Source: a virus
DNA length: 64,000 nt
Virus record (IMG/VR): IMGVR_UViG_3300042455_000638
Strand: one strand, 5' to 3'
Shown here: positions 9,735 to 56,479 of the stretch, one piece after another
Layout of the letters: each line of letters starts with the position of its first letter
How positions within the stretch are numbered: position 1 is the stretch's first letter
The notes under the pieces: generated by a model
Told to the model about the DNA's origin: nothing
The model's input: only the letters and a program-made list of their open reading frames with translations
The model's database searches: none
Position numbers and translations under genes: made by a program

Positions 9735-9812
9735 TTCGCATTGGTAGACAGGGATTGCAAGCATTACCAGGCGGACCAGGTAAGCAAACAAATGGACCTG
9801 GACAAACATCGG

Positions 9813-9855: not shown

Positions 9856-10058
9856 TATATTACACGCCATTTCCAGTATATTGGAGGTGGCTGGACGGTA
9901 ACCCGCTACGTCAGTCCCGTTAAAACCTAGGATTGCCAGTGTTTTCCGCTCTTTCCTGCCATCCGGGGCAATGCCAGGGAAGTTAAGCCCAAATTCAGAC
10001 CGGGGCATCCTGGTCCTTACAGGGTCCTCTAGGCTATTTGGTAACCCAGCCACCTTTT

Positions 10059-10316: not shown

Positions 10317-10388
10317 TGGCCGGGCCTTGACAGGCCCGACCGAGCTGGCGATGATGGCAGCGGCTTATCCCCTCAACGGAGACCAGAT

Positions 10389-10712: not shown

Positions 10713-10726
10713 GGCCAGCTTTACTT
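10692..10726. terminator. Bidirectional intrinsic terminator
   Basis: A6 - AGCTGGCC - loop - GGCCAGCT - TTTACTT. Sits where a rightward gene and the leftward operon converge. Confidence 0.6.
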
Positions 10727-11000
10727 AATGCAGATACTTGTAGAGAAGTGTTTACTTATCGTCACTCAACGCACACCTCCGCTTCGACAAACTCGCCCGG
10801 GCCACCGATGTCGCCCGAGCTGCGTACCACGTTAAACCACTGCATCGTCAACCTTTCGTATGTAAGCGTCATTGACCACGACACACTCAACAGTCTGTCT
10901 CACCGCGATCCAGACGTAGCAGCCGAGGTAGAATGGGACGAACCCGACGTTGAAAAGTCTCAACATCCAAATCGGTATCCATTGCATGTTGGGGTGGAGA

Positions 11001-21095: not shown

Positions 21096-21664
21096 ACGTG
21101 CTTGTTGCGTGTGAGTACAGCGGACGGGTGCGAGATGCCTTCCGCAAACTTGGCCATGATGCTTGGTCCTGCGATATCATCGACTCGGAGACACCGAGCG
21201 AGTACCACATCAAGGCCGATGTTCTCAGCGTTCTCAACTGCGGCTGGGATCTGATCATCGCTCACCCACCTTGTACGTACCTCTGCAACAGCGGAGTCCG
21301 TTGGTTGTACACAGAAGAGGGGCGTCTCAAGAAGATGACCGCTGCTGCCGGTTTCTTCAAAAGATTTCTCGAAGTTGACTGCCCGAGAGTCTGTATTGAG
21401 AATCCGATCATGCACAAGCACGCCAAGGTTATCATCGGTGTAGACTACACCCAGATCGTTCAACCGTGGCAGTATGGCCACGGGGAGACAAAGGCTACTT
21501 GCCTCTGGTTAAAGGGTTTGCCAAAGCTGGAACCGACAAACATCGTTGAAGGGCGTGAGGCCCGGATACATATGATGTCACCGGGGAAGGACCGGGGTAA
21601 GAAGCGGTCTGAGACGTATCAAGGTATTGCCGACGCGATGGCGGCACAGTGGGGCAGTTTATGA
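21092..21664 (+). CDS. Minimal DNA C5-cytosine methyltransferase-like protein
   Basis: IAHPPCTYLCNSG resembles C5-MTase motif IV (PC). VCIENP resembles motif VI (ENV). No convincing FxGxG motif I, so function is uncertain. Confidence 0.35.
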   Translation: MNVLVACEYSGRVRDAFRKLGHDAWSCDIIDSETPSEYHIKADVLSVLNCGWDLIIAHPPCTYLCNSGVRWLYTEEGRLKKMTAAAGFFKRFLEVDCPRVCIENPIMHKHAKVIIGVDYTQIVQPWQYGHGETKATCLWLKGLPKLEPTNIVEGREARIHMMSPGKDRGKKRSETYQGIADAMAAQWGSL

Positions 21665-29313: not shown

Positions 29314-29628
29314 ATGAAATCATCAGAACTTGTACGGCAGTATGACATCGGTGAGAACTCACCGCCACACACGGTATGGCTCGGAGACACTGTCTGGTGG
29401 TTCGCCCAGAACGAAACCAGTGGTGTCCCCGCACCGGCCACGGTCTTAGCGTTCTGCGAAGACAACATGGTTAACCTGTCGTACCTGTCTGTCGTTGGTA
29501 CGGGCAAGCAGGTTGTGATCACAGGCGTATGTCTCGTCGGAGATGAACGTCTGGGGAACAACAACTACCGCAAGAACGGGTCGTGGCTTCCACGAACAGC
29601 ATTCGGCGTGTTACCGATTAAGGATTGA
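29314..29628 (+). CDS. Hypothetical protein (104 aa)
   Basis: Track ORF between terminase and portal. Confidence 0.45.
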   Translation: MKSSELVRQYDIGENSPPHTVWLGDTVWWFAQNETSGVPAPATVLAFCEDNMVNLSYLSVVGTGKQVVITGVCLVGDERLGNNNYRKNGSWLPRTAFGVLPIKD

Positions 29629-31811
29629 AGATGCAACCGCTCGACATGGAACAACTGCAGCGATGGGTTCTGGGTCCACTGGTCAACCAGTGGTTCGCCC
29701 GGTTCGGTGCTGCAGAGAAGACGAAGGAGCGGTTCAACGTAATGGCCAAGCTCTGCCGACAGTTCCTCGGCAGCTCGGCTAAGACCATGTGGGAGGACTC
29801 CTTTAGGAAGGAGTTCTACCCATCGGTGTCTCAACCGCAGTTCATGGTCAGCTTGAACAAAGCCTTCGAGCTGGTGGCCATCATTGGACCGAGCTTGTAC
29901 TGGCAGAACCCGACCCGTGAAGTAAAGACTGCAGACACACCGGACCAAGTACAGATCGCTCAGATCCTTGGCCTGACGGACGAGATGCTACTTGAGCAAG
30001 TTAAGCAGCAGCAGGACCAGACTGAAGCTCAACGCACGATGCGTAACAGTCTTGCCACGGTCGTGCTGGAGTACATCGGTCGCCAACACCCGGGCTCGGT
30101 GAAGTCTGACTATGAGATGATAGTTCAGGACGCTCTTGTGACTGGCCGAGGGTGCGGCTGGACCGAGACATACGAAGACAAGGCGACGGGTGCCGCCTGC
30201 GTTGGTACGTTCTACGACCCCGTTGATAACCTGTTGATCGACCCGGATGCAAAAGATCCAATCCTACGAGACGTAAAGTGGATTGCCCGGCGACATCAGG
30301 AACCAGCGTGGGTCGTTGAACGTCGCTTTGGATACCCACCGGGATACCTCTACGGACGGGGAACTCACACCAGCTTTGAGTTCGCCACAAAGGGTTCCGT
30401 ACAGGCCGACACCCAGACCCTGTATCAAGACCAAGTCGAGTGGTACGAGGTCTGGTCAACAGGGGGTATCGGAGCCCGAGTTGCTGGAGTACACGGGGAC
30501 TACGGTCAAGCCATCGACAGGTTGACCGGGGACAACTGCTACCTATGTCTATGTCGGACGGTGCCGCACCCGCTTAACATGCCTCCAGCCTTGATGGCAC
30601 AGGGTACACCTGAGCAAATCCTTGAAGCCTTGAAGTGGAGAACAGCTCGGTACGGTTCGGTCTGTGAGTTGTGGAAGGACCGCAAGTGGCCTGTCGAGGT
30701 CATGGACTTCTACCCAGTCATCAACACTACGTGGCCTATGGCTGTACTCGGCCCAGGCATCGGTTCGTTGCTGGCCATGAATATCCTGCTTGTCACCCAT
30801 CTCGAAATGAGCTGGGATCGACGGCGAGATATCATCGCCATCTACAACGGGTATGAGCAGGAGGTTGAGCAGGCAATCAAGGGCGAGAACAACCCCGCCA
30901 TTATCAAGATCAACCCCGTCTCGAACGTGCGAGTTCAGGACGTTGTGTCCTTCCTGCAGCGGCCTGACATCCAAGGCAACCTGTTGGATTGGCTGCAGTA
31001 CCTCGACAATCAGTTCCAGATGGCAACGGGGCTCGACGACATTCACTACGGGGTTAGCCAGAAGCAGGCCCGCGTTAGTGCCGACGTAAACGCCAAGCAG
31101 AACGCAGCCAACGTCCGGCCAGAGAAGATGGCAACCGATGTCCACAAGTTCGTAGTCAACGTCTCCACGAAGGAGCTGTGGCTTGCGGCTATGTACATGA
31201 AGGGCGAACAGCTCAGGGGCCTACTCGGCCCTTGGGGGTCTATGGCGTGGGACACGATGCTGGGGGCCATGCCCTTCGAAGAGTTGTGCCGTGAGGTAGA
31301 GGTGTGGGTCGAGGCGACCGACATGAGACGACCTAACCGTGACAAGGACATGTCAGACCTGCAGCAGATCAGTCAGTTCCTCATCCCGGCAGCACAGCAG
31401 TATGCAACGGACACGGGCGATAGCAAGCCGATGAATGCTATCATCGCTCGGTTCGGTGAGGCTGCCCAGATACGTGACATTCAGGACTTCTTCTTCGGAG
31501 ACTGGAGACCCCAGCAAGATCCGGCTATGCTTCAGGCTCAGCAACAGGCTGCTGCCCTTGAGTCTCAGAAAACTGCGGCTCAAACTGAAGAGATTAAAGC
31601 GAAGACAGTTGCAAGACTGGTTGATGCTCAGTACAAACAAGGAGGAGCGGCGGCTCCCGCACAGCAGAAGATGCAGTGGAATGACCTGTTCAACCGCCAG
31701 AAAGTTCGTATGCAGGAGGAGGCTCACCTGCAGAAAATGGTTCACCTGCAAGAGCAGCAGGATATCCAGGCAGCGGCTGCAGAGCAGGCTGCGAAGAATA
31801 GAGGTAAGTGA
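29625..31811 (+). CDS. Portal protein candidate
   Basis: 728 aa, immediately downstream of the terminase. C-terminal Q/A-rich coiled coil as in P22-type portals. Confidence 0.55.
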   Translation: MKMQPLDMEQLQRWVLGPLVNQWFARFGAAEKTKERFNVMAKLCRQFLGSSAKTMWEDSFRKEFYPSVSQPQFMVSLNKAFELVAIIGPSLYWQNPTREVKTADTPDQVQIAQILGLTDEMLLEQVKQQQDQTEAQRTMRNSLATVVLEYIGRQHPGSVKSDYEMIVQDALVTGRGCGWTETYEDKATGAACVGTFYDPVDNLLIDPDAKDPILRDVKWIARRHQEPAWVVERRFGYPPGYLYGRGTHTSFEFATKGSVQADTQTLYQDQVEWYEVWSTGGIGARVAGVHGDYGQAIDRLTGDNCYLCLCRTVPHPLNMPPALMAQGTPEQILEALKWRTARYGSVCELWKDRKWPVEVMDFYPVINTTWPMAVLGPGIGSLLAMNILLVTHLEMSWDRRRDIIAIYNGYEQEVEQAIKGENNPAIIKINPVSNVRVQDVVSFLQRPDIQGNLLDWLQYLDNQFQMATGLDDIHYGVSQKQARVSADVNAKQNAANVRPEKMATDVHKFVVNVSTKELWLAAMYMKGEQLRGLLGPWGSMAWDTMLGAMPFEELCREVEVWVEATDMRRPNRDKDMSDLQQISQFLIPAAQQYATDTGDSKPMNAIIARFGEAAQIRDIQDFFFGDWRPQQDPAMLQAQQQAAALESQKTAAQTEEIKAKTVARLVDAQYKQGGAAAPAQQKMQWNDLFNRQKVRMQEEAHLQKMVHLQEQQDIQAAAAEQAAKNRGK

Positions 31812-39125: not shown

Positions 39126-39810
39126 CAGAAGCCAAGTTAACAACAGGTCCCAAGTTGACCTGTCGGCAGTCATTCCGTGGATAAACGACGCAGGAGCTGA
39201 GATACCCGCGTACGGAGTTATCCAACTTCGGACGAACTACGACACTACCAGTCACGCCCTAAAGCCAGACGGCACTACGGGGCTGTTCTTCGTCAACGGC
39301 CCGGTACCCGTTGCCAGCACAAAGCGTGGCGAGTCCCTCGTGTGGAATCGCCCGAGAACTGTTCTGCTCGATGGGTCTTCCGTCGGCCGGGAAGTGGGAC
39401 CTGTAGAAGCCTCTTGGCAGATGACGTCAGAAGGCACCGGGTTCCGCGTACTGAAACAGGCGGTTGCGGGAGTCGGCGTTGTCGTCCAAGTTGGGGGTGG
39501 AGGGACTGGCGGGGGCGGTCACCGGATCTGGTTTGACATCACCTCCGTAACATGCAATGAGGACCTCACGAAAACCCTTACTGTTAATGTTACCCACTTC
39601 ACTGGCGGCTGCGACGAACCGATTCCCGGAGAAGATGAGTACGGGAACATAATTGTTGAAGACATTTGTGGAATCCTGAACTACTATACCGAGATTTGGC
39701 TTGAATCCGGAGGGATCAAGGGGAGTGCCACGTACGTCTATCCGAGGAGCGGGTACTGTGAGCCTAAGTGGATTGTCGATAATGTCTGTGGTCAGCCGGA
39801 GTGTGCGTAA
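39118..39810 (+). CDS. Hypothetical Gly-rich structural protein (230 aa)
   Basis: Track ORF. Confidence 0.45.
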   Translation: MIDRSQVNNRSQVDLSAVIPWINDAGAEIPAYGVIQLRTNYDTTSHALKPDGTTGLFFVNGPVPVASTKRGESLVWNRPRTVLLDGSSVGREVGPVEASWQMTSEGTGFRVLKQAVAGVGVVVQVGGGGTGGGGHRIWFDITSVTCNEDLTKTLTVNVTHFTGGCDEPIPGEDEYGNIIVEDICGILNYYTEIWLESGGIKGSATYVYPRSGYCEPKWIVDNVCGQPECA

Positions 39811-41738
39811 TGGGACCTGAGTACTGGAAACCCGGCGTACCAACAGCGTTGAAGAAGTGCAGCGAGCGGGTATCAAACTCCTGCACCGATGAGACGGACG
39901 GGTGCTGTGCAGTCATCGCGTGTAGCTACTGTCTTGAGTGGAACCCCGATTACGGTCAGACCAAGAAAGGTTTTGCCACGTTCTTTGGCACGTACTGGTC
40001 CGGGTCCGTGGCAGGTGCAACGTGGATAGGTAGATGGGAGCGAGAGATCCTCCCGGATGTAACTCCCCCGCTCAGTGCTAACTCAGCAGGCATGTCGTTC
40101 GCCCCAATCGCTGGCGGTACGTACATGATGGGGAGTCCCGGGTCCGAGACAGGTAGACTGTCCAACGAGGATCAAGTCTCCAAGACGGTTGAGGCTTTTA
40201 ATATCGGAACGACAGAGGTCACGCAGGCCCAGTACTTGGCAGTACGCGGGCTAAGCCCGAGTCATTTCGCCGGGTCAGGTCGTCCGGTGGAGATGGTATC
40301 CTACTCCGACGCATTGGCGTTTTGCTCGACCCTGTCGGCCCGCCCATCGGAAATAGCGATGGGTAGAACGTACCGGCTACCAACCGAAGCTGAGTGGGAG
40401 TGGGCGTGCCGGGCAGGTACAACCACAGCGTACTCCTTCGGGGCAAACCCTGTGGACCTGCCGACGTACGGATGGTTCGAGGATAACAGTGGGGCAGAGA
40501 CCCATGACGTTTCGTTGAAGTCCCCCAACACCTCCAACCTATACGACATGCACGGTAACGTATGGGAGTGGGCACAGAACGACCAGTTGGACGCGGTCGA
40601 GGGGGAGCAGGTTATACGTGGAGGGGGTTGGGACTCTACCGCAGCCCAGTGCCGGTCAGCAAGTCGACAGACGGTGGCGGAGACAACGAAAGCAAACAAC
40701 ATAGGCTTTCGCGTTGTCATGATGCAGGCACCAATCCCCCAGTTAGGTGACTGCGAGTTCGTTGTCACGTTTGACGAAGACGAGGTCTACCGCAAGTCAT
40801 GCGAGTACGGCCAATCGTGCCGAGACTCCAGTGACTCTGCGGTAGCCACGATCGGGTACTACGATACCGGCGTGATCAGTTGGACGAAGTACGAGCCCAG
40901 ACCGCTGCACTACCGAGACGACGACTACAGCTACTGCAAGGTACACTACTGCGATGACTGTGAATGCACATGCGAGGAGCTATGCGTCGACGTACGGGAA
41001 GTGTTGACGTATGGGTACAGCGACTTCATCGACACGTATGAAGGTACGTTGGCAAACACCGCGTACCCTTGTGACCCTCCAGTGTGGGAAGGGACTGTTG
41101 GTAGCTTTGATTTGTCTCTTGCTCTGGGACATGACGAGTACGGGGCCTGTGTAATCACCCCAACAGTTAATGGGTATGATCAACCCGCCATTCCCGCTCC
41201 TGGGTGTGCGGACATGGAGGCTACCCTTGTCCTGGAAGACGGCAGTGAGATAACGGTCCGCTGCAAGAAGTGTGACTGCCCAGATGGAATTGGCGACTGT
41301 ATCTGTGGTCGACCGATGGGGCCTATCCTACGTGTCGTTTGGTCGTCGGGCAACGGAACTCATGGCAGTGCGTCAAGGACGTTTGACTTGACGTATGGCA
41401 TGGTCGACGAGCCAACGATATCATGTTCCCCTTGGTCACCTAACCCGTTCCCCGGCTACCGAGGCAGCGTGTCCGGGACGTTCCCAATCCCAATGGGTGG
41501 CACACGAGCAGACACGCTGGAGGTAATTTTGGTTTGCGAATGTACTGGTTGCCAGTATTGTATATATTACCGATGGGTAAACGATGATGCTTATCCTACC
41601 TGGCAAGTGGTTCCTTACACCATTCTCACTTGTGACTGCCCCGCCGTCTTAGACGTGATCGGCGGTTTCACTGAAGGTAACGTATGGGGGTATCAGGTCA
41701 GTGATGTCATGATCTATGAGTTGGAGGACAACTGCTGA
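39801..41738 (+). CDS. FGE-sulfatase (SUMF1/EgtB-like) domain protein with Cys-rich C-terminal half
   Basis: GNVWEW, VIRGGGWDS...CRSASR, MGSPGSE and TEAEWEWACRAG match conserved FGE-sulfatase blocks at about aa 100-310. The C-terminal 300 aa carry many Cys pairs. Confidence 0.5.
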   Translation: MCVMGPEYWKPGVPTALKKCSERVSNSCTDETDGCCAVIACSYCLEWNPDYGQTKKGFATFFGTYWSGSVAGATWIGRWEREILPDVTPPLSANSAGMSFAPIAGGTYMMGSPGSETGRLSNEDQVSKTVEAFNIGTTEVTQAQYLAVRGLSPSHFAGSGRPVEMVSYSDALAFCSTLSARPSEIAMGRTYRLPTEAEWEWACRAGTTTAYSFGANPVDLPTYGWFEDNSGAETHDVSLKSPNTSNLYDMHGNVWEWAQNDQLDAVEGEQVIRGGGWDSTAAQCRSASRQTVAETTKANNIGFRVVMMQAPIPQLGDCEFVVTFDEDEVYRKSCEYGQSCRDSSDSAVATIGYYDTGVISWTKYEPRPLHYRDDDYSYCKVHYCDDCECTCEELCVDVREVLTYGYSDFIDTYEGTLANTAYPCDPPVWEGTVGSFDLSLALGHDEYGACVITPTVNGYDQPAIPAPGCADMEATLVLEDGSEITVRCKKCDCPDGIGDCICGRPMGPILRVVWSSGNGTHGSASRTFDLTYGMVDEPTISCSPWSPNPFPGYRGSVSGTFPIPMGGTRADTLEVILVCECTGCQYCIYYRWVNDDAYPTWQVVPYTILTCDCPAVLDVIGGFTEGNVWGYQVSDVMIYELEDNC

Positions 41739-45433: not shown

Positions 45434-48400
45434 ATGCCTACCATCTCCCAGCTCCTCAACGCTGTACCGCAGAACCAGCTCCAGCCTCAGCAAACTCAGC
45501 AGCCACAGTCCGAAGACATAGGACTGATGGATACGTTGAGTGCGGTGGGTGGGGCTAGTCTCGGGGCCGTCGCGTCCGTAGGTAACTTCCTCGACCTACC
45601 GGGCTCGTCGATCCGAGACATCCTCGCCGGGCAGAACCCGTTCGACCAGTGGATGTCCCCTCTTACGGACAAGAACCGCACATCGGGCAGACAACTGCTT
45701 GAGAAGTACGGCATGAGAGCCAACCGTGAGACTGGCATGTCCGGTTGGTTGTCAGACCCCGGTGAAGGTCTACGCGACCTCGCTGGTTTCGCCACTGAGG
45801 TACTGCTTGACCCATTCGGCCCGTTGACCAAGGGCACGAAGATGGCTACCGGTGCGGCCAGCCTGGTTGACCGGGCTCACCCCCTTGTGAAAGGTTTGGC
45901 CAACGGAGCTGTCAACGTCTTCGACAAGCTGCCGGGTAAGATCGGGCAGGTCACGAAGGACCGGGTTACTGGTTGGGCTAAGAACGCCAACCGTGGTGTC
46001 AAGGCATTGTTCAACGCACCGAGCGGTGGCGTCACCGATGTGTACGCTCAAGGTATCAAAGAACGGGCTACCGTCACAGCAGACGCGGCCCGGGAATTGG
46101 CCAACACGATGAGCATTGACATCGTTGAGACCGCCAACCGGAGCGGGTTCAACCTGAACCGGAACAACGATCTTGACATGACCGATCCGGCTAACTGGTT
46201 GGCCGATGATTCACCCCTCGTGACACGGGCTCGGGAAGATCAACTCACCCGGTTCTGGGAAGGCACGTACGACCCGGCCAATGCTGGTATGAAGCAGGGA
46301 GACCTCGTCACCCCGGCGGGTTCAGACGGGTTTAAGGAGGTTGAGTGGATCGACCGGTCGTCCACTGGCACGAAGGTCAAGCTGGTCAACGACGATACCA
46401 TCTACAACGACTTCGACTTTGATCCAAAGAAGCAGTGGCTGAGTCAGGGTGTGGAGATCCCACAAGAAGTCCAGGACGTCATGCTGCAGATGAAGGGGTT
46501 CCGCGATACGCTGAAGGATGAGGTACATGAACTCGGTGGTAACATCGGGGACCTGATGGACCCGTACATCGACTTCACTCACCGTCGTAAAGGTGTTGAC
46601 CTCGCCCGAGCTGAACAGATCGGCGGACTGGCCCATCACTCCTGGGTGAGAAACAAGTACGCCAGTCTTGCGTCGACGTTGCAGGCAACTGGTGGTCGTG
46701 AGATGCTGTACAAGGCATTTAAGGATGGTACGACTGGAGTCACGGACTTGTACCGTGACAACAAGTGGCAGAACCTCGTACGTAGCATCAACGATCTGGC
46801 TACTGGAGTTGGTGCCGACGATGGCCCCAACTACATACCGAACTACGTTGGTATGCGGCACATCCAGGAGTTCGCTGAGGCCCTTGGTAAGACTCCGGAG
46901 GACGTCTTCAAAGAGATGCAGCAGATGCGTCCAGTCAACGCGACAGACACCCGAGCGTACAGCACACAGCCGGGGGTATACACGGTTGCTAGAGATGGAG
47001 CTGTTGTCGGAGAAATACGGGCTAACGTACTGGACGGCGTAGCCGACATCGACGCCAGTAGACTGTCGGACACGAGCCTACTTCCAGACGCCCTACACGA
47101 CGTGGCTCAGCATCTTGCCAAGACTGGTGCGGCCGGTAGGGTCCGGGTCAGTGCAGCTCAGGACATTGCCGACGCTCTCAAACCACACCGATATGTTCCG
47201 GACGGGTTGAACCCTGACGGCACCGAACGGTTGGTGCGAGACATCTTCAAGGCCGAGGATACGTACACGTCGTTCGACAAGTTCATGCCCAAGGACGAGT
47301 TCATTGCTCGGTTCAATGCGTACGTCGACCACCTTGCGTCTCAGGTCAAGCAGGGCGACATGCCGGGGGTACAACCCGGTCGCGGGTGGTGGAAGTCTTA
47401 CACGAGCTACACCCCGAACGCTGACGGTACGGAGCGGGTACTTAACCTCGACCCAGCGAACCTGACGTTCGTTGACAGCAACAACATCCTCGACCCAAAC
47501 ATCCGCAAGATGTTTACCTTCCGCAACGAGTACGATCAGGCTATCGCCCACGTTCAGGATGGCAAAGAACTCTACATCGGTATCAAGCAGGACAAGGGTA
47601 AGAAGGCCGAGCTGTTAATGCTCAAGCCGACTCAACGGCACCAGATCGAAATGCGGCACAAACAACTGCTTAGCAAACTCGATGATATGCTGGTCAAGAG
47701 CCCGCTACTCCAGGCTGAGGCTATCACTGACGCTGTGCATGGTGCCATCACTCGGAACTACTCGGACAAGGTAGACCGATGGATGCCAAAGATCGACAAG
47801 GTCGACGGTACAGATGTGGGTGAGATTACGGCGATGAATGCTGCCGGGGACTTCTCCCGCAAGGCAGGACTGAAGCAGTGGCACAAGACGTTCGAGGAAC
47901 TCAGCGAAGGGGTAGACTTTGTTAAACCCCAGTCCGCACAGGAAGCCCTGCTGCGGTTGGATGAGGACAGCCTGCAGGCGTTGATGTTTACACCAGCTCA
48001 GCGAACCCGACTCAACCAGATCCGGGGAGAGATCGCGGACAAGGCGGATGTGATCCAAGACGACGCGGCCCGTGAAGCTGCCAAGATTAACCAGGACATG
48101 TCAATCGAACTGGTAGACCGGCACCGAGGGCTGGCTGAGGATATCTCTCAGAACATCGAACGTCGGTTCAACAACATGTACGAGGGTTCGTCTGTATCCA
48201 GCAACTTGGAGTACTTACGGAAGAACACAGCGTTCAAGAGTTTGCTACAGTCACAGCGGGACTTCATCGGTAAGGCCGTAGTCGACGCACGTACGAACCC
48301 AGACGCTTTCGGCACACGTAGCCCCCGAGGTAATGTTGACGTCGAGTACGACCTCGCCAACAAACGTGGTATGACGTTTGAGCAGGCGATTGAGGACAAG

Positions 48401-50305
48401 TTCTTCGGGGACGGGATCAGCGACACACGGTTCATCGAGTCGGTACGACAGTACCTGATCAGAAACAAGTCGATGAAGTCCACCAACACGGCGGACGCCT
48501 TGATCGCTAAGCTGGAGGCTGGCGGACTCACTGATGCTGAGGTGGCTAACCTGAAGGCCGCTGCTAAGTCCGCCAAGATGGTTGACGCTGATGAGCTGGC
48601 CAAGCAGATCAACGAAATCAAATCGCTACGCCTTATGTCTGACACTTGGGGACAGATGAAGACCCTCAACGAAGGGGCGGGCATGTCGATGATGCCGGAG
48701 CTGGAAGGTCCTTTCCGGTGGGCACAGAACCTGATGGCTGCAACGAAGGCCGGTCAGCTTAGCACGTCGTTCGCTACCGGCGTACGAGACGGCATGTCAT
48801 CGTTCTTCAACGGTGTCATCATGGGTGACATGAACCCGATGGCTTTGACCCGACACTGGAAGGCCGCAACGTCATTCACCAAGGGCATGGCGATAGACCC
48901 CGGCGAAGGTATCGCAGACATCGAGCGGTACCTTGCGGCGAAAGGAATTGCGTCTACCGCTGAGACAAGAGGCCAGGTATTCCAGAACATGTGGAACGCA
49001 CACCACATGCACGGTTCACCGAACCCGGACATCATCACAGCCGATGCGTTCCGGCTGGCTGAAGCCGACTCGTCAATGGCACTACTGCGTAACCGAGCAG
49101 GCAGCCAGCCGGGCGAGGCTCTTGCCGGTCTTAAACGAACAGTGCAGAAGCCTTGGCAAGCCTTGGACCCACGAGTACAAGGTACGTGGACCACGGATGA
49201 ACTCGGTCGGCAAGTTCAGCGGTCTGAAGGTAAGAACCCCCTCGTCAACATGATGAATGGGTTCCGGGGGATGATCGACACAACGGTACGTACAACTTTT
49301 GTTCTCGACCGGTTGAAGAAGACCGGGTCGGTGGCTCAGGCATTGGCCGACGCGGACAGGATCTTGTTGAACGCGGACCCGAAGAACTTCACACGCTTCG
49401 AACACAAGTTCATGAAGTCGGCGGTACCGTACTACTCCTTCATCCGGCAGAGTCTTCCCCTCTTCATCACAGAGATGATGGCTAACCCCGGTGGTAAACT
49501 TGGGATGACCATCCGAGCAACAAGACTCGGTCAGGGTGGTGAGGATGACTACGTTCCGTACCAGTACCTCGACTCAGCGGCTATCCCTCTTGGCGAGACA
49601 GACGAAGGTCAGCTCAAATATCTGACGTCTCTCGGGCTCATGCACGAAGACGCGATCAAGTACGCAGGCAATGCTTTGCAGGGTGACCTGCGAGGTTTGA
49701 TGCAGCACGCCCTCAGCTCGTCCAACCCGGCAATGAAGTGGCTGATCGAGTACAGCACCAACACGTCTCTGTTCAGCCAAGGGCCGATGGGTGGTAGAAG
49801 ACTTGACGACCTCGACCCAACGATGGGACGTATCGCAGCTAACCTTGGACTACAGAGCGGTGATGCTTCAGGTCGGCCGATCCCGGTTGGTGGTCCGATT
49901 GCCGAGTCAGTAGCAGCGATGAGTCCTATCTCCCGCTTGCTATCAAGTACAAAGATTGCCACGGACAAACGGCTGAGTCCCGGTGAGAAGGTAGCCCGGC
50001 TTGTGTCGGGGTTCCGCATGGAGACCATCGAGAAAGAGCAGATCACCCGAGACCTGCGTGACCGGCTGAACGCCCTGCAGATCAAGCTGGGTGCCCGCCC
50101 ACTTACGATCGTTAGTGGAGCCGACAAGTTGAGAGAGTTCGCGTTGGCTCAGGGCGACGAGGAGACCGCAGTACAGCTCGCCCAGATCGAGAAGGCACTG
50201 GCTATCCAGAAAAAGTTGGACCGGGACTCCGAGAAAACCACCAAAGGAACACCGAAAAAAGATTCTCGTAAAGCCCTGATTGACAAGCTCATGGGGTTAC
50301 GTTAA
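45434..50305 (+). CDS. Giant virion protein (1623 aa): tape-measure or internal core/ejection protein candidate
   Basis: Longest ORF in the window, in the structural region between virion genes and the lysis cassette. No specific family recognised. Confidence 0.5.
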   Translation: MPTISQLLNAVPQNQLQPQQTQQPQSEDIGLMDTLSAVGGASLGAVASVGNFLDLPGSSIRDILAGQNPFDQWMSPLTDKNRTSGRQLLEKYGMRANRETGMSGWLSDPGEGLRDLAGFATEVLLDPFGPLTKGTKMATGAASLVDRAHPLVKGLANGAVNVFDKLPGKIGQVTKDRVTGWAKNANRGVKALFNAPSGGVTDVYAQGIKERATVTADAARELANTMSIDIVETANRSGFNLNRNNDLDMTDPANWLADDSPLVTRAREDQLTRFWEGTYDPANAGMKQGDLVTPAGSDGFKEVEWIDRSSTGTKVKLVNDDTIYNDFDFDPKKQWLSQGVEIPQEVQDVMLQMKGFRDTLKDEVHELGGNIGDLMDPYIDFTHRRKGVDLARAEQIGGLAHHSWVRNKYASLASTLQATGGREMLYKAFKDGTTGVTDLYRDNKWQNLVRSINDLATGVGADDGPNYIPNYVGMRHIQEFAEALGKTPEDVFKEMQQMRPVNATDTRAYSTQPGVYTVARDGAVVGEIRANVLDGVADIDASRLSDTSLLPDALHDVAQHLAKTGAAGRVRVSAAQDIADALKPHRYVPDGLNPDGTERLVRDIFKAEDTYTSFDKFMPKDEFIARFNAYVDHLASQVKQGDMPGVQPGRGWWKSYTSYTPNADGTERVLNLDPANLTFVDSNNILDPNIRKMFTFRNEYDQAIAHVQDGKELYIGIKQDKGKKAELLMLKPTQRHQIEMRHKQLLSKLDDMLVKSPLLQAEAITDAVHGAITRNYSDKVDRWMPKIDKVDGTDVGEITAMNAAGDFSRKAGLKQWHKTFEELSEGVDFVKPQSAQEALLRLDEDSLQALMFTPAQRTRLNQIRGEIADKADVIQDDAAREAAKINQDMSIELVDRHRGLAEDISQNIERRFNNMYEGSSVSSNLEYLRKNTAFKSLLQSQRDFIGKAVVDARTNPDAFGTRSPRGNVDVEYDLANKRGMTFEQAIEDKFFGDGISDTRFIESVRQYLIRNKSMKSTNTADALIAKLEAGGLTDAEVANLKAAAKSAKMVDADELAKQINEIKSLRLMSDTWGQMKTLNEGAGMSMMPELEGPFRWAQNLMAATKAGQLSTSFATGVRDGMSSFFNGVIMGDMNPMALTRHWKAATSFTKGMAIDPGEGIADIERYLAAKGIASTAETRGQVFQNMWNAHHMHGSPNPDIITADAFRLAEADSSMALLRNRAGSQPGEALAGLKRTVQKPWQALDPRVQGTWTTDELGRQVQRSEGKNPLVNMMNGFRGMIDTTVRTTFVLDRLKKTGSVAQALADADRILLNADPKNFTRFEHKFMKSAVPYYSFIRQSLPLFITEMMANPGGKLGMTIRATRLGQGGEDDYVPYQYLDSAAIPLGETDEGQLKYLTSLGLMHEDAIKYAGNALQGDLRGLMQHALSSSNPAMKWLIEYSTNTSLFSQGPMGGRRLDDLDPTMGRIAANLGLQSGDASGRPIPVGGPIAESVAAMSPISRLLSSTKIATDKRLSPGEKVARLVSGFRMETIEKEQITRDLRDRLNALQIKLGARPLTIVSGADKLREFALAQGDEETAVQLAQIEKALAIQKKLDRDSEKTTKGTPKKDSRKALIDKLMGLR

Positions 50306-50363: not shown

Positions 50364-50705
50364 ATGTTGACAGGTGCTGTTGTACGAGACGTCACGAAGA
50401 AGCTGAACGACGCAACGGACATCCCGTTCGTTAGCGAGGCTATCGAGGGTTTGGTTATTGAGAAGTTGGTTGTCCTGATCGACAGCCACCTCCCGCCCTG
50501 GGTCGCTCAGTTCATGGCCAGTGCCGCTGACGGATTGACCGTTGAGGAGCTGAAGGTCCACGAAGACGTAATCGTGGTTGACCTCTGCAAGCGAATCAAC
50601 ATGAGCAAACTCCTGCCCGACTTCGTTGAGGCAAAGCTCATCCGCTACGTTGTCAACGCGGTGCTGGAATACGCCCGAGTTGGTTTCATGGCACCGGGGG
50701 TGTGA
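50364..50705 (+). CDS. Hypothetical protein (113 aa)
   Basis: ATG 50364 after AGGAGGAAAATC. Confidence 0.45.
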   Translation: MLTGAVVRDVTKKLNDATDIPFVSEAIEGLVIEKLVVLIDSHLPPWVAQFMASAADGLTVEELKVHEDVIVVDLCKRINMSKLLPDFVEAKLIRYVVNAVLEYARVGFMAPGV

Positions 50706-50706
50706 A

Positions 50707-50994
50707 TTGAGCACGATTCAAATTGCAGGGGCCTTCCTCCTTCTGTTCGGCGGTTTGACCGGAGCTGGTACGTTTCTGTACGGTAAGCTCCGCAAGCCCG
50801 CGACCCCACCCGGTCTCCAAGTAGACTCTGACGCACCGGCTCCACTTCGTATCTCTGAGTACCTGGCATTGATCGAGGCTGCCAGCCCGACTGCTTCTGC
50901 CGGTACTCGGTGGGAGTATGCAGCCTGCGGATGCACCGAGGCTGACGTGCTTCGACGTGAGGTGATCAGACTTGGTGGAGAGAAGAAGTCATGA
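50707..50994 (+). CDS. Small membrane protein (holin candidate), TTG start
   Basis: N-terminal TM segment IAGAFLLLFGGLTGAGTFLY. Follows GGGGGTG. Lies upstream of the peptidase. Start codon is uncertain. Confidence 0.3.
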   Translation: MSTIQIAGAFLLLFGGLTGAGTFLYGKLRKPATPPGLQVDSDAPAPLRISEYLALIEAASPTASAGTRWEYAACGCTEADVLRREVIRLGGEKKS

Positions 50995-51296
50995 AGTACC
51001 TACCAACAATCCTGATGATTATCGGTGGGTCACTTCTACTGGTTCCGGGGGGCGACACGGACGTTGCCTTTTCAGATACGCTTGCCACCGCGTACAAAGC
51101 GGACCGGCAGTTCAAGGTCGAGAACCTTCTGCGATTGTCCCAGATGACGGGGTCGACCGTTGAAGCCCGAGCTACGGCTTGGGAAGAACTCGACCGGGCG
51201 TCATTCGGCAAAGCCTTTGACGCAGTCGGCAACGATGTGTCAGTGGCCATCGAGAAGAACACAGAGGCTGACCTGGCCAAAGCGTGGAGTAAGTGA
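50991..51296 (+). CDS. Small membrane protein (holin/antiholin candidate)
   Basis: N-terminal TM segment LPTILMIIGGSLLLVP. ATGA coupling to the peptidase gene. Confidence 0.4.
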   Translation: MKYLPTILMIIGGSLLLVPGGDTDVAFSDTLATAYKADRQFKVENLLRLSQMTGSTVEARATAWEELDRASFGKAFDAVGNDVSVAIEKNTEADLAKAWSK

Positions 51297-52132
51297 TGCC
51301 TAAGCTAAACGGCTGGCGTATCGACCTTGAGAACTTCGACTCCTTGTTCGCGATGGGAGGGGAAGATGAGGTCATGGCCCTGTGCGGGACATACAAGGAA
51401 GTGTCTTTTGACCCAAGAGAACTCCTGGTTGTCGAGAACCAAGGGAGCATGGGGTCCTGCCAGGGCAACAGCATCTCGTCTGGGTGCGAGTGGTTGTACA
51501 TCCTTGCCACGGGCAAGACCGATGTCCAGCTCAGCCGGGCATACGGCTACTACCGGTCTCAGATGAAGGACGGACTGCTCGGCCGGGACGCCGGGTCAAC
51601 GATCGAATCAGGGATCTGGGTTGCCACACAGTGCGGCATTCCACTTGAGTCTGAGTGGAAGTACAGCGACCGGTACAACCCAAAACCACCAAAGCCTTGG
51701 GATGTAATGGATACCCTTGGGGGCAACTTCAAGATCGGTAAGTCGATTCGGCTCACGACATACGAAGCGATTCGTACGTTCCTCGGTGCCGGTATCGGCA
51801 TGGTTCACATCGGCATTCCCTGGAACTCAAGCACAGACCGAGCGGTAGTAGACAGCTTCAACCCGAATGGTGGGGGAGGTCACTCGGTCGGACTGTACTC
51901 TTTGTCGACACGCATGGATAGCCAAGGCCGACCGTATATCTGGATGATGAACTCCTGGGGTAAGACTTGGGGTACCGAAGGTTGGGCCGAGTGGTCGCCA
52001 CGAGCGGTCGAGCAGATGCTTCAAGCGAGGTTCTCGGTGTTCATTGCCATCTCGGAGATGGCAAATGTGAAGCCGAGGGAGTGGAAGTTGGACGACATCA
52101 AGAAGAAGGTTAAATGGTGGCTGCAAGCATGA
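51293..52132 (+). CDS. Papain-like (C1 family) cysteine peptidase, endolysin candidate
   Basis: Catalytic motifs in canonical order: NQGSMGSCQG (Gln/Cys), GGGGHSVGLYS (His) and NSWGKTWGTEGW (Asn-Ser-Trp). Confidence 0.55.
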   Translation: MMPKLNGWRIDLENFDSLFAMGGEDEVMALCGTYKEVSFDPRELLVVENQGSMGSCQGNSISSGCEWLYILATGKTDVQLSRAYGYYRSQMKDGLLGRDAGSTIESGIWVATQCGIPLESEWKYSDRYNPKPPKPWDVMDTLGGNFKIGKSIRLTTYEAIRTFLGAGIGMVHIGIPWNSSTDRAVVDSFNPNGGGGHSVGLYSLSTRMDSQGRPYIWMMNSWGKTWGTEGWAEWSPRAVEQMLQARFSVFIAISEMANVKPREWKLDDIKKKVKWWLQA

Positions 52133-52665
52133 AAAACATTATGCACCTGTTTCTATTGGTCATGGTTCTGACTGGGTGCGGTCAGGAAGCCAAACCAACA
52201 ATCGAAGTAACACCAGCCTACGTGAACTTAATCACCACGGCGGCTACGGACACCACCAAACAGGTTGGCGAGGTAAAAGCTGTATTGCAGGAGAACACCC
52301 GGCTCCTGATACAGATCAAAGACCTTGTCCAGAACCCTCCCACCGATGGGGTTGAAGCTCAGGAGACGCCCTCCTCTCCTACGTTGCTCACCCCATCGGT
52401 GAATAAACTCTACGTGTCCAGCATCCCGGGCTGCGGCCCCTGCGTACAGCTAAAGCTGGACGACGAGGCTGGGAAGTTTGCTGAGGCAGGGTTCGAGGTC
52501 GTGTACGCGGACGATCCTACCTGGGATGGTGGCTACCCGATCATCCGGTGGCTCGACAGCGAGGGTCAGTGGAAAGCCATGATGTACAAAGATCGAAGGG
52601 GTAAGTACCGGTCGTCCGGGTACGGACCCAACACAATCTCTGAACTGGTCGGGCTGGTGAAATGA
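52129..52665 (+). CDS. Lipoprotein (spanin-like outer-membrane component candidate)
   Basis: Signal peptide with lipobox MKNIMHLFLLVMVLTGC. CGPC motif. Immediately follows the peptidase. Confidence 0.4.
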   Translation: MKNIMHLFLLVMVLTGCGQEAKPTIEVTPAYVNLITTAATDTTKQVGEVKAVLQENTRLLIQIKDLVQNPPTDGVEAQETPSSPTLLTPSVNKLYVSSIPGCGPCVQLKLDDEAGKFAEAGFEVVYADDPTWDGGYPIIRWLDSEGQWKAMMYKDRRGKYRSSGYGPNTISELVGLVK

Positions 52666-52970
52666 ACGACTACCTACGCACCCAGCTATACAAGCACCTC
52701 CACTGCGACACCGCGTCGGCGGTGGCATCCGGAGTTTCCCGGGGTATCGGGTACGAACGAGCCTTTGGCCTGCAAGCCAAGGCCGACCGTGTCGTTGGCT
52801 ACTACGAGAAACACAGGGTCTTCTGTACCAGCCAGAAGGAACTGATCGGTCGGATAAAGAACGAATGGACGGCAGGGCTTGGCCCGATTGCGTCTTGGTT
52901 AATGTGGATGGCCATAAAAACTTTGGTAACACAGGTTGTACGGTGGTTGTGGAACCGGTACACTCCTTGA
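52662..52970 (+). CDS. Membrane protein with C-terminal TM helix (spanin or holin-like candidate)
   Basis: C-terminal LGPIASWLMWMAIKTLVTQVVRWLW. ATGA coupling. Confidence 0.35.
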   Translation: MNDYLRTQLYKHLHCDTASAVASGVSRGIGYERAFGLQAKADRVVGYYEKHRVFCTSQKELIGRIKNEWTAGLGPIASWLMWMAIKTLVTQVVRWLWNRYTP

Positions 52971-53554: not shown

Positions 53555-53851
53555 GTGCCAGACACCGACAGGGAGCCTTGGTGGGGCCGGGTCATTGAGA
53601 GCTTGACCAAGTATATCACCGCTCAGACGTTCAACAACGCACTGCTGCTGACAATCATATTCGGCGGGGCGTACGTTTGTATCAAGCTCGTCCCGATCCA
53701 TCTCACCCAGATCCAGAGCGGGTATGAGAGAGAAGGTGCCGCCAACCGAGCATTGATTGAACGACTTGATGAGTACCACCGTGAAGAACGAATGCAAACC
53801 TTCGAGTATTTGCGGGAGATGTGGGGTAATAAGAAAGTAGCGAGTCACTAA
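53555..53851 (+). CDS. Small membrane protein
   Basis: GTG start after GAGGGAGAG. TM segment ALLLTIIFGGAYVCIKLV. Confidence 0.4.
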   Translation: MPDTDREPWWGRVIESLTKYITAQTFNNALLLTIIFGGAYVCIKLVPIHLTQIQSGYEREGAANRALIERLDEYHREERMQTFEYLREMWGNKKVASH

Positions 53852-53884: not shown

Positions 53885-56479
53885 GTGTCTATCGCAGCAA
53901 CTGTTGTAGATCTGATTCTCGATGCAACCGCAGCAGGCAAGGCGATGCTGCTTGCGGCAAATGCTTCCGCACAGAAGGCACTGCTGTCTTTGGTGAAGGC
54001 GGACGTTGGCCTTGACAACGTAGACAACACCAGCGATGCCGCCAAGCCCGTCAGCACCGCTCAGCAGACAGCCCTTGATGCGAAGGTCACAGCCAACACC
54101 ACTATCGTTGGTGCGACTAAGACCAAGATCACCTACGACTCCAAAGGTCTGGTGACTGTAGGGGCGGATGCTACAACTGCGGATATCGCTGACTCAGCAA
54201 ACCGTCGATACGTGACCGATGCACAACAGACTGTGATCGGTAACACCAGTGGGACAAACTCCGGCGACAACGCGGTCAACACTTTGTACTCTGGCCTTGT
54301 CACCAACGCTACCCACACTGGCGATGCCACGGGTGCAACCGCGTTGACCTTGGCGACAGTCAACTCCAACGTCGGTTCCTTCGGGTCAGCAACCCAGTCA
54401 GCGGCCGTTACCGTCAACGCCAAAGGTTTGGTTACCGCAGCCAGTGCCACGACGATCACTCCCGCTATCGGATCGGTGACTGGACTTGGAACCGGGGTAG
54501 GTGCTGCCCTCGTAACAGCGGTAGGGTCAGCAGGTGCTCCCGTCGTTAACGGTGGATCCCTCGGCACGCCTGCTTCAGGCACTCTCACCAACTGCACAGG
54601 ATACCCAACGACCGGGCTCGGGCTGACATCAGGCAACCTGTCACAGTTCGCAGCCACAACATCGTTGCAGTTGGCAGGGGTGATCAGCGATGAGACGGGC
54701 AGTGGCTCCCTCGTGTTTGCCAACACCCCGACGTTGGTCACTCCTGTGTTGGGTGTGGCCACTGCCACCAGCGTAAACAAAGTTGCCATCACGGCACCAA
54801 CCACGTCGGCTACGCTCACGATCGCCAACGGTGCGACACTCACTGCATCCGCGACAGCGACTGTCAGCGGGACCAACACCGGGGACAATGCGGTTAACGC
54901 CCTGTACTCAGGGCTGGTCACCAACGCGACACATACCGGAGACGCAACAGGTGCGACCGCCCTGACCTTGGCAACAGTAAACGCCAACGTCGGTTCCTTC
55001 GGGTCAGCAACACAATCGGTTGCTTTCACGGTGAACGCCAAAGGGCTGGTGACAGCAGCCAGTGCAACCACGATCACACCCGCTATCGGGTCTGTGACTG
55101 GCTTGGGCACAGGGGTTGGTGCTGCTCTCGTAACAGCGATAGGGTCCGCAGGATCGCCCGTGCTAAACGGTGGTGCCCTTGGCACGCCAGCAAGTGGGGT
55201 TGCGACTAACCTTACCGGCACCGCGTCGGGCTTGACGGCAGGTACGGTGACGACCAACGCGAACCTGACCGGCGATGTCACGTCTGTTGGTAACGCCACG
55301 ACCCTGGCTAACTCAGGTGTGACCGCTGGCGTATACTCGATGGCGAACATAGTGGTAGATGCCAAGGGTCGCATCACTATGGCGGGTAACAGTTCGTTGG
55401 GGAACTCCTTGGTCGCCATTCAGAACATCCCGTCGATGGCTGCGGACGAGAGTATATACTACACCAGCAGTACAGTAGCAGCAGCCTACTCCCTCACTGC
55501 AGCCGCTCGTACCGTGCTTGATGATGCGACCGTTGGTGACATGGTCAACACGTTGGGTGGGGCCACTAGCACGGGCACTGGCGGACTTGTTCGCCTGAAC
55601 GCACCAACGCTTCAGGGCGGGATGCTTGTCGAAGCTGGAGGGAACTTTACTACGAACTACGGAGCCCCGGCACAACTTCGTGTACGGCGAGCCCAAGGTA
55701 CGCAAGGTGCCCCAGCACAGGCAACGTCCGGCATTCAACTCGGGATCATCGGGGCACAGGGCATGAACGATGCTCTGGCCTTTGCCGGGTACACGAGCTA
55801 CATCAGCTTTAACGCAGCACAGAACATCACGACGACTGGATGCGGTGGCTACTTCAACTTCTACACCACCCCGATCGGTTCTTTGACTGAAGTCATGCGG
55901 ACATGGGTCGGAGCGGCAGGCAACTTCGGTATCGGAGTGTTCGCAGCGGAACCATCGGCCCGACTCCACGTCATCCACACTACAGAGCAGTTACGGCTTG
56001 CGTATGACGCTTCGAACTACCTCTCGGCCACGGTGGGCTCAACGGGTGCGGTCACGTTCGACGCGGTCGGTGCAGGGGCTGCGTTCAATTTCTCGGATTC
56101 AGTCACAGTGGCAGGTTCGTTAGTCTCTGCCTCTGGTGGGGTTGGGTATGCGACGGGAGCAGGTGGCACGGTCACGCAAGCCACATCGAAAACAACCGGA
56201 GTCACCTTGAACAAGACCACCGGCACGATTACGATGAACGCTGCGGCAATGACGTACAACACCAAAGTCGCGTTTACCTTGACCAATAGTACGATTGCGG
56301 CAACTGACTTTGTACTGGTACAACATGAGTCCGGAGGTACAGTGGGATACTACTTCTGCACGGCAACTCCGGCAGCAGGGTCAGCAACGATCAACGTCTA
56401 CCTTGAAGGATTCACAGCAGGTACACTATCAGAGGCGATAGTACTAAGGTTCGTGGTTATCAAAAGTGTCAATGCTTAA
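53885..56479 (+). CDS. Tail fibre protein
   Basis: N-terminal phage tail-fibre repeat (KADVGLDNVDNTSDAAKPVSTAQQTALDAKV). Recurring D.KGLVT / DAKGRIT motifs. Internal about 200-aa tandem duplication. 864 aa. Confidence 0.8.
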   Translation: MSIAATVVDLILDATAAGKAMLLAANASAQKALLSLVKADVGLDNVDNTSDAAKPVSTAQQTALDAKVTANTTIVGATKTKITYDSKGLVTVGADATTADIADSANRRYVTDAQQTVIGNTSGTNSGDNAVNTLYSGLVTNATHTGDATGATALTLATVNSNVGSFGSATQSAAVTVNAKGLVTAASATTITPAIGSVTGLGTGVGAALVTAVGSAGAPVVNGGSLGTPASGTLTNCTGYPTTGLGLTSGNLSQFAATTSLQLAGVISDETGSGSLVFANTPTLVTPVLGVATATSVNKVAITAPTTSATLTIANGATLTASATATVSGTNTGDNAVNALYSGLVTNATHTGDATGATALTLATVNANVGSFGSATQSVAFTVNAKGLVTAASATTITPAIGSVTGLGTGVGAALVTAIGSAGSPVLNGGALGTPASGVATNLTGTASGLTAGTVTTNANLTGDVTSVGNATTLANSGVTAGVYSMANIVVDAKGRITMAGNSSLGNSLVAIQNIPSMAADESIYYTSSTVAAAYSLTAAARTVLDDATVGDMVNTLGGATSTGTGGLVRLNAPTLQGGMLVEAGGNFTTNYGAPAQLRVRRAQGTQGAPAQATSGIQLGIIGAQGMNDALAFAGYTSYISFNAAQNITTTGCGGYFNFYTTPIGSLTEVMRTWVGAAGNFGIGVFAAEPSARLHVIHTTEQLRLAYDASNYLSATVGSTGAVTFDAVGAGAAFNFSDSVTVAGSLVSASGGVGYATGAGGTVTQATSKTTGVTLNKTTGTITMNAAAMTYNTKVAFTLTNSTIAATDFVLVQHESGGTVGYYFCTATPAAGSATINVYLEGFTAGTLSEAIVLRFVVIKSVNA

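Follow-up and report, generated by a model that had tools for sequence, protein, structure and literature searches.

How does a phage open its host if no conventional wall-cleaving enzyme can be recognised in its genome? This question was raised by a 64,000-nucleotide stretch of viral DNA (IMG/VR record IMGVR_UViG_3300042455_000638; hereafter the window), in which the region 50707-52970 encodes, in order, two small membrane proteins, a papain-family (C1) cysteine peptidase, a lipoprotein and a further putative membrane protein. An initial annotation, made from the letters alone, had read this block as a lysis cassette built around the peptidase rather than a conventional endolysin. The computational follow-up reported here supported that interpretation, and we consider it somewhat probable, at slightly better than even, that the block is a phage lysis cassette with a C1 peptidase in place of the usual muralytic enzyme. 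All five open reading frames (ORFs) of the initial annotation were found on the + strand within this region. They are listed below with their neighbours.

50364-50705, + strand: gpA, soluble protein of 113 amino acids (aa), always after the 1623-aa giant protein
50707-50994, + strand: gpB, 95 aa, TTG start right after the upstream stop
50991-51296, + strand: gpC, 101 aa, start overlapping the gpB stop
51296-52132, + strand: papain-family (C1) cysteine peptidase, 278 aa from the ATG at 51296 (279 aa from a GTG at 51293)
51440-51442, 51458-51460, 51881-51883 and 51950-51952, + strand: its catalytic codons Gln50, Cys56, His197 and Asn220, respectively (codons checked)
52114-52665, + strand: gpE, lipoprotein of 183 aa, lipobox LTGC with Cys22 at 52177-52179
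52662-52970, + strand: gpF, 102 aa, start overlapping the gpE stop, conserved C-terminal hydrophobic/amphipathic helix (...GLGPIASWLMWMAIKTLVTQVVRWLW)
53555-53851, + strand: gpH, 98 aa, transmembrane helix at residues 30-48 (Kyte-Doolittle 2.13), highly charged helical C-terminus

The peptidase and the search for other lytic enzymes

By profile, sequence and predicted structure, the product of 51296-52132 is a C1 peptidase with an intact active site. Translation most likely begins at the ATG at 51296, whose position overlaps the stop codon of gpC and was also picked by other gene callers; the 279 aa first assigned to it hold from the GTG, and the likelier start gives 278. The Pfam Peptidase_C1 profile (PF00112) matched the protein over positions 5-202 of 220 with 21.5 bits against a gathering score of 20.7 (E-value (E) 2.7e-4), barely over the threshold; its homologues scored up to 50.9 bits, and most of them carry a precomputed PF00112 assignment. 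A phmmer search of PDB sequences returned xylellain (3ois) with E 1.7e-8. The AlphaFold model, with a mean predicted local distance difference test (pLDDT) of 90.4 and a predicted template modelling score of 0.89, exhibited the two-lobed papain fold. In a Foldseek search of the PDB its best 50 matches were all C1 proteases (cathepsins, Der p 1, xylellain), with 3ois first (E 1.5e-15, template modelling score 0.70). The C1 fold suggested at first was thus supported by Pfam, phmmer and AlphaFold/Foldseek alike. Peptidase_C1 was the only Pfam match of the protein and phrog_16701 'peptidase' its only PHROG match, and no muralytic catalytic domain was recognised in it.

The papain signature was found in the canonical order, as initially described. 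When 32 homologues with identities as low as 39% were aligned, Q50, C56, H197 and N220-S221-W222 were invariant, the Gln-Cys-His-Asn order being canonical for family C1, and Cys56 was the sole invariant cysteine. The close homologues (n = 67) were all metagenomic and ∼275 aa long. The peptidase has no signal peptide, no hydrophobic segment and none of papain's disulfide cysteines, indicating that it can fold and accumulate in the cytoplasm. Apart from this, a CEWC motif, which may be a redox switch, was observed in the catalytic helix of most homologues at a distance of 9-12 residues past the nucleophile; the window peptidase keeps its first Cys only (CEWL, residues 65-68, 51485-51496).

The closest solved relative, xylellain of Xylella fastidiosa, shares 21% identity with the peptidase, and both are C1 enzymes of the bacterial type, without the eukaryotic I29 propeptide. 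The identity is low, however, and xylellain is a cellular enzyme outside any phage cassette of membrane proteins and a lipoprotein. A structure search of viral proteins gave uncultured-phage proteins as best matches (E ∼1e-22) and viral cathepsins at ranks 32 and 41. The uncultured-phage proteins of C1 fold include ones annotated as 'Peptidoglycan binding-like' (484 aa) and 'N-acetylmuramidase (fragment)'; by their annotation, these stand in endolysin-like modular contexts. The initial remark that C1 peptidases are unusual as phage lysins should be softened, since such phage proteins exist. A virus-encoded C1 protease is also found in baculoviruses, in which V-cath together with chitinase breaks host barriers at the end of infection and frees the progeny. 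V-cath differs in serving a eukaryotic virus and tissue liquefaction, in having a propeptide and being processed in the secretory pathway, and in belonging to no cell-envelope lysis cassette. To cut wall peptides, phages use the papain-like enzymes CHAP and NlpC/P60 and the pseudomurein endoisopeptidases PeiW/PeiP (PMC10318531). The peptidase shares Cys-His chemistry and a papain-like fold with CHAP (C51), NlpC/P60 (C40) and PeiW/PeiP (C71) of methanogen phages, but these form a separate branch of the superfamily, and the peptidase matched only Peptidase_C1, with 50 C1 proteins as its best PDB neighbours.

The initial annotation had seen neither a lysozyme nor an amidase or CHAP domain anywhere in the window; in agreement, a Pfam scan of 79 of its ORFs, covering both strands, found no lysozyme, transglycosylase, amidase, CHAP, NlpC/P60 or metallopeptidase. 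The scan returned only DUF7336, NT5C, Band_7, FGE-sulfatase, Phage_tube_2, Terminase_6N and VRR_NUC. Pfam searches of the eight ORFs around the cassette found no muralytic family. The window is most of a phage genome with a G+C content of 55-56%. An identical metagenome contig bridges window position 64000 to position 1 via 2,936 extra bases, indicating that the genome, of ∼66.9 kb, is circular or circularly permuted. Beyond the end of an SNF2 helicase gene, these extra bases (L026 11406-14341) add no more than nine small minus-strand ORFs to the window, and the ORFs of this stretch were scanned with PHROGs only. PHROG scans found no endolysin family among all large proteins, nor among the best 25 of 38 PHROG families matched by 65 further ORFs, including those of the 2.9 kb missing from the window. 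No canonical endolysin was therefore found elsewhere in an essentially complete genome, and within reach of profile methods the C1 peptidase is the only lysis hydrolase candidate.

Membrane proteins and lipoprotein beside the peptidase

The two small proteins encoded upstream of the peptidase had been described as carrying N-terminal transmembrane helices, and the hydropathy profiles agreed. In gpB the hydrophobic helix covers residues 6-24 (Kyte-Doolittle 19-residue mean 1.78); a basic stretch comes next, and the C-terminal part is soluble. gpB had no Pfam, PHROG or PADLOC match, and homologues hold the equivalent position in the related loci L003, L004, L008, L001 and L010; its sequence makes it a candidate holin or antiholin. 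In gpC the helix covers residues 3-21 (mean 1.63), and the protein is predicted to be signal-anchored with N-in/C-out topology. It is homologous to proteins of L004, L008 and L005, a conserved partner directly upstream of the peptidase, and equivalents with a lipobox were found in L001, L004, L010, L011 and L013. Equivalents of gpH, which is encoded further downstream, are present in L004 (85 aa), L008 (87 aa) and L001 (104 aa). Judged from its sequence, gpH is a candidate for a second holin or an i-spanin-like protein, and its membership in the cassette is uncertain. Holin-like traits, namely small size, at least one transmembrane helix and a position by the peptidase, fit gpB, gpC and gpH, and the charged C-terminus belongs to gpH.

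Start and stop codons overlap between gpB and gpC, gpC and the peptidase, the peptidase and gpE, and gpE and gpF (the last as ATGA), and a sequence scan of the + strand of the cassette detected neither promoter-like nor terminator-like sites. These genes are translationally coupled and lie within a late operon. gpA is absent in L005, where the cassette lies elsewhere, suggesting that it is outside the cassette and probably marks its upstream boundary.

The lipobox LTGC and the CGPC motif noted at first in gpE were both confirmed, the former with Cys22 and the latter at residues 107-110 (52432-52443). In the mature protein, of ∼160 aa, a long helix (residues 34-73, motif LQENT..L..IK) is connected by a Pro-rich linker to a C-terminal thioredoxin-like domain (97-183). 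The model of this domain showed a strand at 97-102, CGPC at 107-110 and a helix at 108-118, with pLDDT of 86-94. Pro142 (52537-52539) stands in the cis-Pro position and was invariant in 12 sequences, and C107 and C110 were at least 90% conserved. Almost all Foldseek matches of the gpE model were thioredoxin-fold proteins (DsbE, ResA, thioredoxins), yet with weak E of 0.008-0.09. No Pfam match of gpE was found, and a profile search of the domain against PDB sequences was negative. On the strength of the model, the C-terminal domain is predicted to be thioredoxin-like. A common origin with the thioredoxins encoded at the Planctomycetaceae loci described below was not supported, in view of the negative PDB profile search and of an hhalign comparison that aligned only 21 columns around CxPC with a probability of 11%.

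The protein encoded last, gpF, had been called a C-terminal transmembrane protein. The helix is indeed C-terminal, but in the window it is only moderately hydrophobic (1.27) and it is stronger in homologues (1.72 in L008), so a transmembrane assignment is plausible and not firm. Homologues of gpF were found in L004, L008 and L005, and ORFs of ∼100 aa with a C-terminal transmembrane helix in many IMG/VR loci. From these sequences gpF is plausibly, though not firmly, a membrane-anchored partner.

Recurrence, fusions and inteins

The block, in the form of membrane protein(s), C1 peptidase and lipoprotein or exported protein, was found to recur in 30 phage or prophage loci, non-redundant at 90% C1 identity, which indicates that the arrangement is beyond chance. 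The ORF directly upstream of the C1 gene has a transmembrane helix or a lipobox in 24 of the 30. The first downstream ORF has a lipobox in 18/30 and a lipobox or an N-terminal helix in 22/30; a CxPC or CPxC motif was observed in it in one third of the loci (10/30), and in three more loci in the second downstream or a mis-parsed ORF.

In the close relatives (L001, L003, L004, L010 and L008; 62-82% identity, contigs of 52-68 kb) the block always follows the giant protein. In L005 it follows helicase, primase and methylase genes, and a 79-aa protein and a 149-aa gpC homologue precede the C1 peptidase. The 79-aa protein has two transmembrane helices by eye, of which the hydropathy scan called one; two such helices are typical of holins. 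In L009 the block follows an HK97-type portal, ClpP and capsid set, and the neighbours in 11 further IMG/VR loci include DnaB, RecT, a lambda-type portal with gpA terminase, or a Mu gpT capsid. The 138 ORFs near the C1 gene in these 11 phages matched 46 Pfam families, and the 25 strongest of them included no muralytic one. In L005, L013 and L035 the peptidase gene stands apart from those of the giant protein and the head, but it never leaves its membrane protein and lipoprotein neighbours. By gene order, the block is conserved and moves as a unit between unrelated neighbourhoods, as lysis cassettes do. A related cassette was also seen on a 109.8-kb contig (3300042294 Ga0453157_0000055).

The C1 family comprised 308 clusters at 50% identity (E ≤1e-30, profile search of 1.84 billion representatives). 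In six of the 50%-identity representatives (P0150, P0151, P0153, P0163, P0165 and P0168; 466-524 aa) an N-terminal transmembrane anchor comes first, then a Pro-rich linker, and then a gpC-like region to which C1 is fused. The N-terminal signal anchor of these fusions indicates that their C1 domain is predicted to be periplasmic, outside the cytoplasm. The fused region of ∼170 aa is only weakly similar to the separate gene upstream of C1, and the fusions suggest a Rosetta-stone-type link between gpC-like proteins and the peptidase.

Inteins of 145-389 aa were found in at least seven homologues (P0139, P0140, P0141, P0143, P0177, P0182 and P0193), several of them with a LAGLIDADG homing endonuclease. 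The insertion point lies between Gly-Ala/Ser and the catalytic Cys (...ENQxxxGA/CFPAG...VHN/CQGH...; slashes mark the intein borders) and corresponds to window 51455/51458, before the codon of Cys56. Because the insertion is right before the catalytic Cys, the protease nucleophile is at the same time the intein +1 residue. Inteins typically sit at conserved sites of genes that a phage cannot lose, and their presence in the C1 gene argues for an indispensable function. An intein at a protease nucleophile is also a natural conditional switch, which could serve protein engineering.

A scan for the C1 family in one genome per prokaryotic species gave nine loci, eight of which belong to Planctomycetaceae (35-44% identity), including the isolate Planctopirus hydrillae JC280. 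The ninth, L010 (62% identity), is a 9.7-kb contig binned as Rheinheimera. This label is likely a binning artefact: all examined ORFs, which encode a fragment of the giant protein, the cassette and the downstream genes, follow the phage gene order, and no host gene was recognised. In P. hydrillae (L013; NZ_LYDR01000151, 7300-19400) an island of ∼12 kb lies between the host genes for leuS and S-adenosylhomocysteine hydrolase. It encodes transmembrane proteins, the C1 peptidase, a secreted thioredoxin, an ABC/STAND-like ATPase and the large terminase subunit TerL, and no recognisable head or tail genes; the cassette is located between leuS and the TerL gene, just upstream of the terminase. The island may be what is left of a prophage, or else a small mobile element in which the cassette has been kept. 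The gene after C1 in Planctomycetaceae encodes a signal sequence and a Pfam Thioredoxin domain (PF00085; 27.9, 40.1 and 26.7 bits vs 23.5), and the upstream transmembrane protein and lipoprotein genes are conserved among these loci.

Proposed function, alternatives and genome setting

In the lysis reading, the cassette would serve an uncultured tailed phage, which is probably temperate, to lyse a diderm host. This reading draws on the intact C1 active site, the coupled and mobile block, the lack of any other recognised lytic enzyme, the signal-anchored fusions, the C1-fold phage proteins with wall-related annotations, the inteins and the absence of PADLOC matches. Late in infection gpB and/or gpH would act as holin and release the peptidase to the periplasm, where, with the periplasmic, membrane-anchored gpC, it would cleave load-bearing peptide bonds of the envelope, either in peptidoglycan stem peptides and cross-links or in structural wall proteins. 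gpE might keep or make the nucleophilic Cys reduced in the oxidising periplasm, or might reduce disulfides of the target, and gpE and gpF may assist, much as spanins do, in opening the outer membrane. That periplasmic redox governs lysis proteins is known from the disulfide isomerisation of the P1 Lyz signal-anchor-release endolysin and from disulfide-linked lambda Rz/Rz1. Those systems use their own cysteines and host Dsb enzymes, whereas here a phage-encoded thioredoxin-fold lipoprotein adjoins an enzyme with a Cys nucleophile.

The block resembles lambda S-R-Rz/Rz1-type cassettes in being a compact, coupled late block with small membrane proteins, a signal-less cytoplasmic hydrolase and an envelope lipoprotein, and in being a module that is mobile between phages and that one prophage-like locus has right before the terminase. 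It differs from them in that the enzyme is of no known muralytic family, no holin or spanin family was matched, the lipoprotein has ∼160 aa after maturation and a thioredoxin-like domain, and the helix of its partner is C-terminal and not N-terminal. The likeness to a holin-endolysin-spanin order pointed out in the initial annotation therefore held for the compact, coupled order, but not for the spanin part.

Several points weigh against the lysis reading. We infer lysis, export and substrate alike. Family C1 is absent from the papain-like families known to act on peptidoglycan (PMC10318531), and the peptidase carries no cell-wall-binding domain. None of the membrane proteins of the cassette matched a holin or spanin family (Pfam and PHROG, E up to 1 or 0.1). 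gpE is large and has an enzyme-like domain, which does not match the architecture of an o-spanin, and gpF has its helix at the C-terminal end, not at the N-terminal end as an i-spanin would; gpH and gpC, whose helices are N-proximal, do not adjoin the gpE gene. Because of the size and domain content of gpE and the topology of gpF, the spanin analogy fails architecturally and otherwise rests on weak matches of gpE to PHROG 'Rz-like spanin' (E 0.013 and 0.069, residues 5-54 only). In the window the block lies inside the late structural region, between the 1623-aa protein and a tail-fibre gene, a position that fits a virion or entry role too. Finally, no family was detected for most ORFs of the genome, among which a novel endolysin could be hidden, and as the PHROG scan of the further ORFs covered the best 25 of 38 families, a very weak endolysin match may have been passed over.

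In the literature searched, nothing directly relevant was found on planctomycete phage lysis, C1 endolysins or inteins in endolysins. Lysis cassettes are well known, and as far as these searches show, one centred on a C1 peptidase with a thioredoxin-like lipoprotein is undescribed. If the lysis reading is true, papain-family C1 peptidases would join the known phage lytic enzymes, optionally with a dedicated redox partner, and the 308 clusters would define a large family of them. It would also give a testable handle on how phages lyse hosts with atypical, protein-rich or peptidoglycan-dispensable envelopes, such as Planctomycetota, as well as new candidate enzybiotics and tools to open such cells.

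A bolder version, which we regard as a minority possibility, is a non-muralytic lysis system, made up of the C1 peptidase with its thioredoxin-like partner and adapted to Planctomycetia-like hosts, in which disulfide-rich wall proteins rather than peptidoglycan would give the envelope its strength. The thioredoxin lipoprotein would reduce cystine cross-links and keep the protease thiol reduced, and the papain-type protease would then digest the proteinaceous wall; a peptidoglycan hydrolase would not be needed. In Planctopirus limnophila most peptidoglycan-synthesis genes are dispensable and the Cys-rich YTV wall protein is essential (PMC10632474), and planctomycete envelopes are protein-dominated (PMC12673574). 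The Planctomycetaceae loci fit such a system well, and for the window phage it is a hypothesis, weakened by the fact that more than half of the 30 loci lack the CxPC partner. No lysis system of Planctomycetota phages was described in the literature searched. From their sample identifiers, we take the metagenomes of the relatives to be freshwater.

It is also conceivable, though unlikely, that the cassette is lytic and the peptidase an accessory factor, the true peptidoglycan hydrolase being encoded by an unrecognised ORF elsewhere. The peptidase and the thioredoxin lipoprotein would then strip an extra layer, for example a proteinaceous wall or outer-membrane proteins. The many ORFs of the genome without family assignment leave room for such a hydrolase, and the exported thioredoxin-like protein with which the peptidase is paired points to proteins or disulfides as the target. 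The normal substrates of C1 peptidases are ordinary peptide bonds in proteins (PMC10318531). Set against this are the lack of muralytic families both in the ∼67-kb genome and in the neighbourhoods of C1 in the 11 phages (25 strongest of 46 Pfam families), and the existence of phage proteins that, by annotation, join the C1 fold to peptidoglycan-binding or muramidase modules. The model for such a factor is LysB of mycobacteriophages, a serine esterase that acts beside LysA on an unusual envelope layer. LysB is a precedent for a non-muralytic lysis enzyme suited to such a layer, but it adds to a recognisable LysA, and no equivalent of LysA was detectable here.

A virion-associated or morphogenetic protease, which would process structural proteins (e.g. 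the 1623-aa protein) or, injected or borne on the tail, cut envelope proteins at entry, appeared quite unlikely; the neighbouring small membrane proteins would then be unrelated moron or exclusion genes. Such a role is suggested by the gene position, with the giant protein on one side and the tail-fibre gene on the other both in the window and in the closest relatives, by the lack of a recognised prohead protease family between the portal and putative capsid genes, and by the absence of a signal peptide from the peptidase. Nevertheless, as described above, the gene leaves the giant protein and the head genes in three loci and keeps its membrane and lipoprotein neighbours. In Planctomycetaceae the C1, thioredoxin and transmembrane protein genes are retained, and the sole structural or packaging gene recognised nearby is that of TerL (L013). 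The signal-anchored fusions, moreover, put the C1 domain in the periplasm of the producing cell. A prohead protease in the narrow sense was rejected, since L009 has its own ClpP-type prohead protease near the portal and capsid genes besides the C1 gene, and the latter travels with membrane proteins and not with head genes.

Little credence is given to an envelope-remodelling or exclusion module that changes the surface of the infected or lysogenic cell without lysis, by receptor destruction, superinfection exclusion or a host-targeting effector, although exclusion systems typically feature lipoproteins and small membrane proteins, the large serine recombinase makes lysogenic-conversion functions conceivable, and the C1, thioredoxin and transmembrane protein genes persist in Planctomycetaceae chromosomes on short islands without most phage genes. 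The genes are, however, coupled within a late operon with no promoter of their own, they are present in very different phage types, as a core and not an accessory function would be, and the inteins point to indispensability; the phage would, besides, still be without any lysis enzyme. No cassette protein had a defence-system match in PADLOC, and with only generic P-loop matches for the ATPase beside the L013 cassette, a defence system was dismissed.

The other features recognised in the window are as follows.

18199-20466: primase/helicase
21649-23199: large serine recombinase, 516 aa
27527-29296: terminase large subunit (weak match)
29625-31811: portal
39801-41738: 645-aa protein of the structural region with an FGE-sulfatase (formylglycine-generating enzyme-like) domain (Pfam E 1.2e-33, assigned to this carrier ORF by inference)
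45434-50305: giant protein, 1623 aa
53885-56479: repeat-containing tail-fibre-like protein
From the family scan: tail-tube family protein (Phage_tube_2)
Replication block: exonuclease, gp2.5-type single-stranded DNA-binding protein, PolA

The giant protein had no Pfam or PHROG match. It is conserved throughout the close relatives, with lengths of 1546-1623 aa, and may act as an ejection, internal-virion or tape-measure-like protein. No relatives at the DNA level were found among 50,697 deposited phage genomes by megablast of 12 kb, TerL had no tblastn match among deposited phage genomes, and the best match of PolA, to proteobacterial siphophages, was only ∼35% identical. For a protein encoded at the start of the window, an exact-sequence look-up returned no record. 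With no close cultured-phage relatives, the host could not be inferred from isolates, and no tRNAs were found that would hint at it. The serine recombinase homologues (n = 62) were all on contigs of ≤69 kb, and no integrated prophage copy with host flanks was seen among these 62.

Several minor observations were made in the rest of the genome. The tail-fibre-like gene contains two internal repeats of 327 bp, 80% identical, at 54247-54573 and 54865-55191; the last 150 aa of its product match phrog_18251, and different genes take its place in L023 and L004. The 645-aa ORF at 39801-41738 also matched phrog_18508 'kinase' (E 3.4e-48), which is odd within a virion module. The early region is otherwise on the minus strand, but at 8041-11041 it is interrupted by four + strand ORFs of 337, 177, 142 and 110 aa that form an island, with a sharp change of AT-skew (0.23) at 8001-10000. 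PHROG and Pfam matches in the early region and the missing 2.9 kb included a MazG-like pyrophosphatase, a 5'-deoxyribonucleotidase (NT5C), a DNA methyltransferase, a sigma-factor-like protein, an SPFH/Band_7 protein and the SNF2 helicase, which together look like a toolkit for nucleotide-pool control and host takeover.

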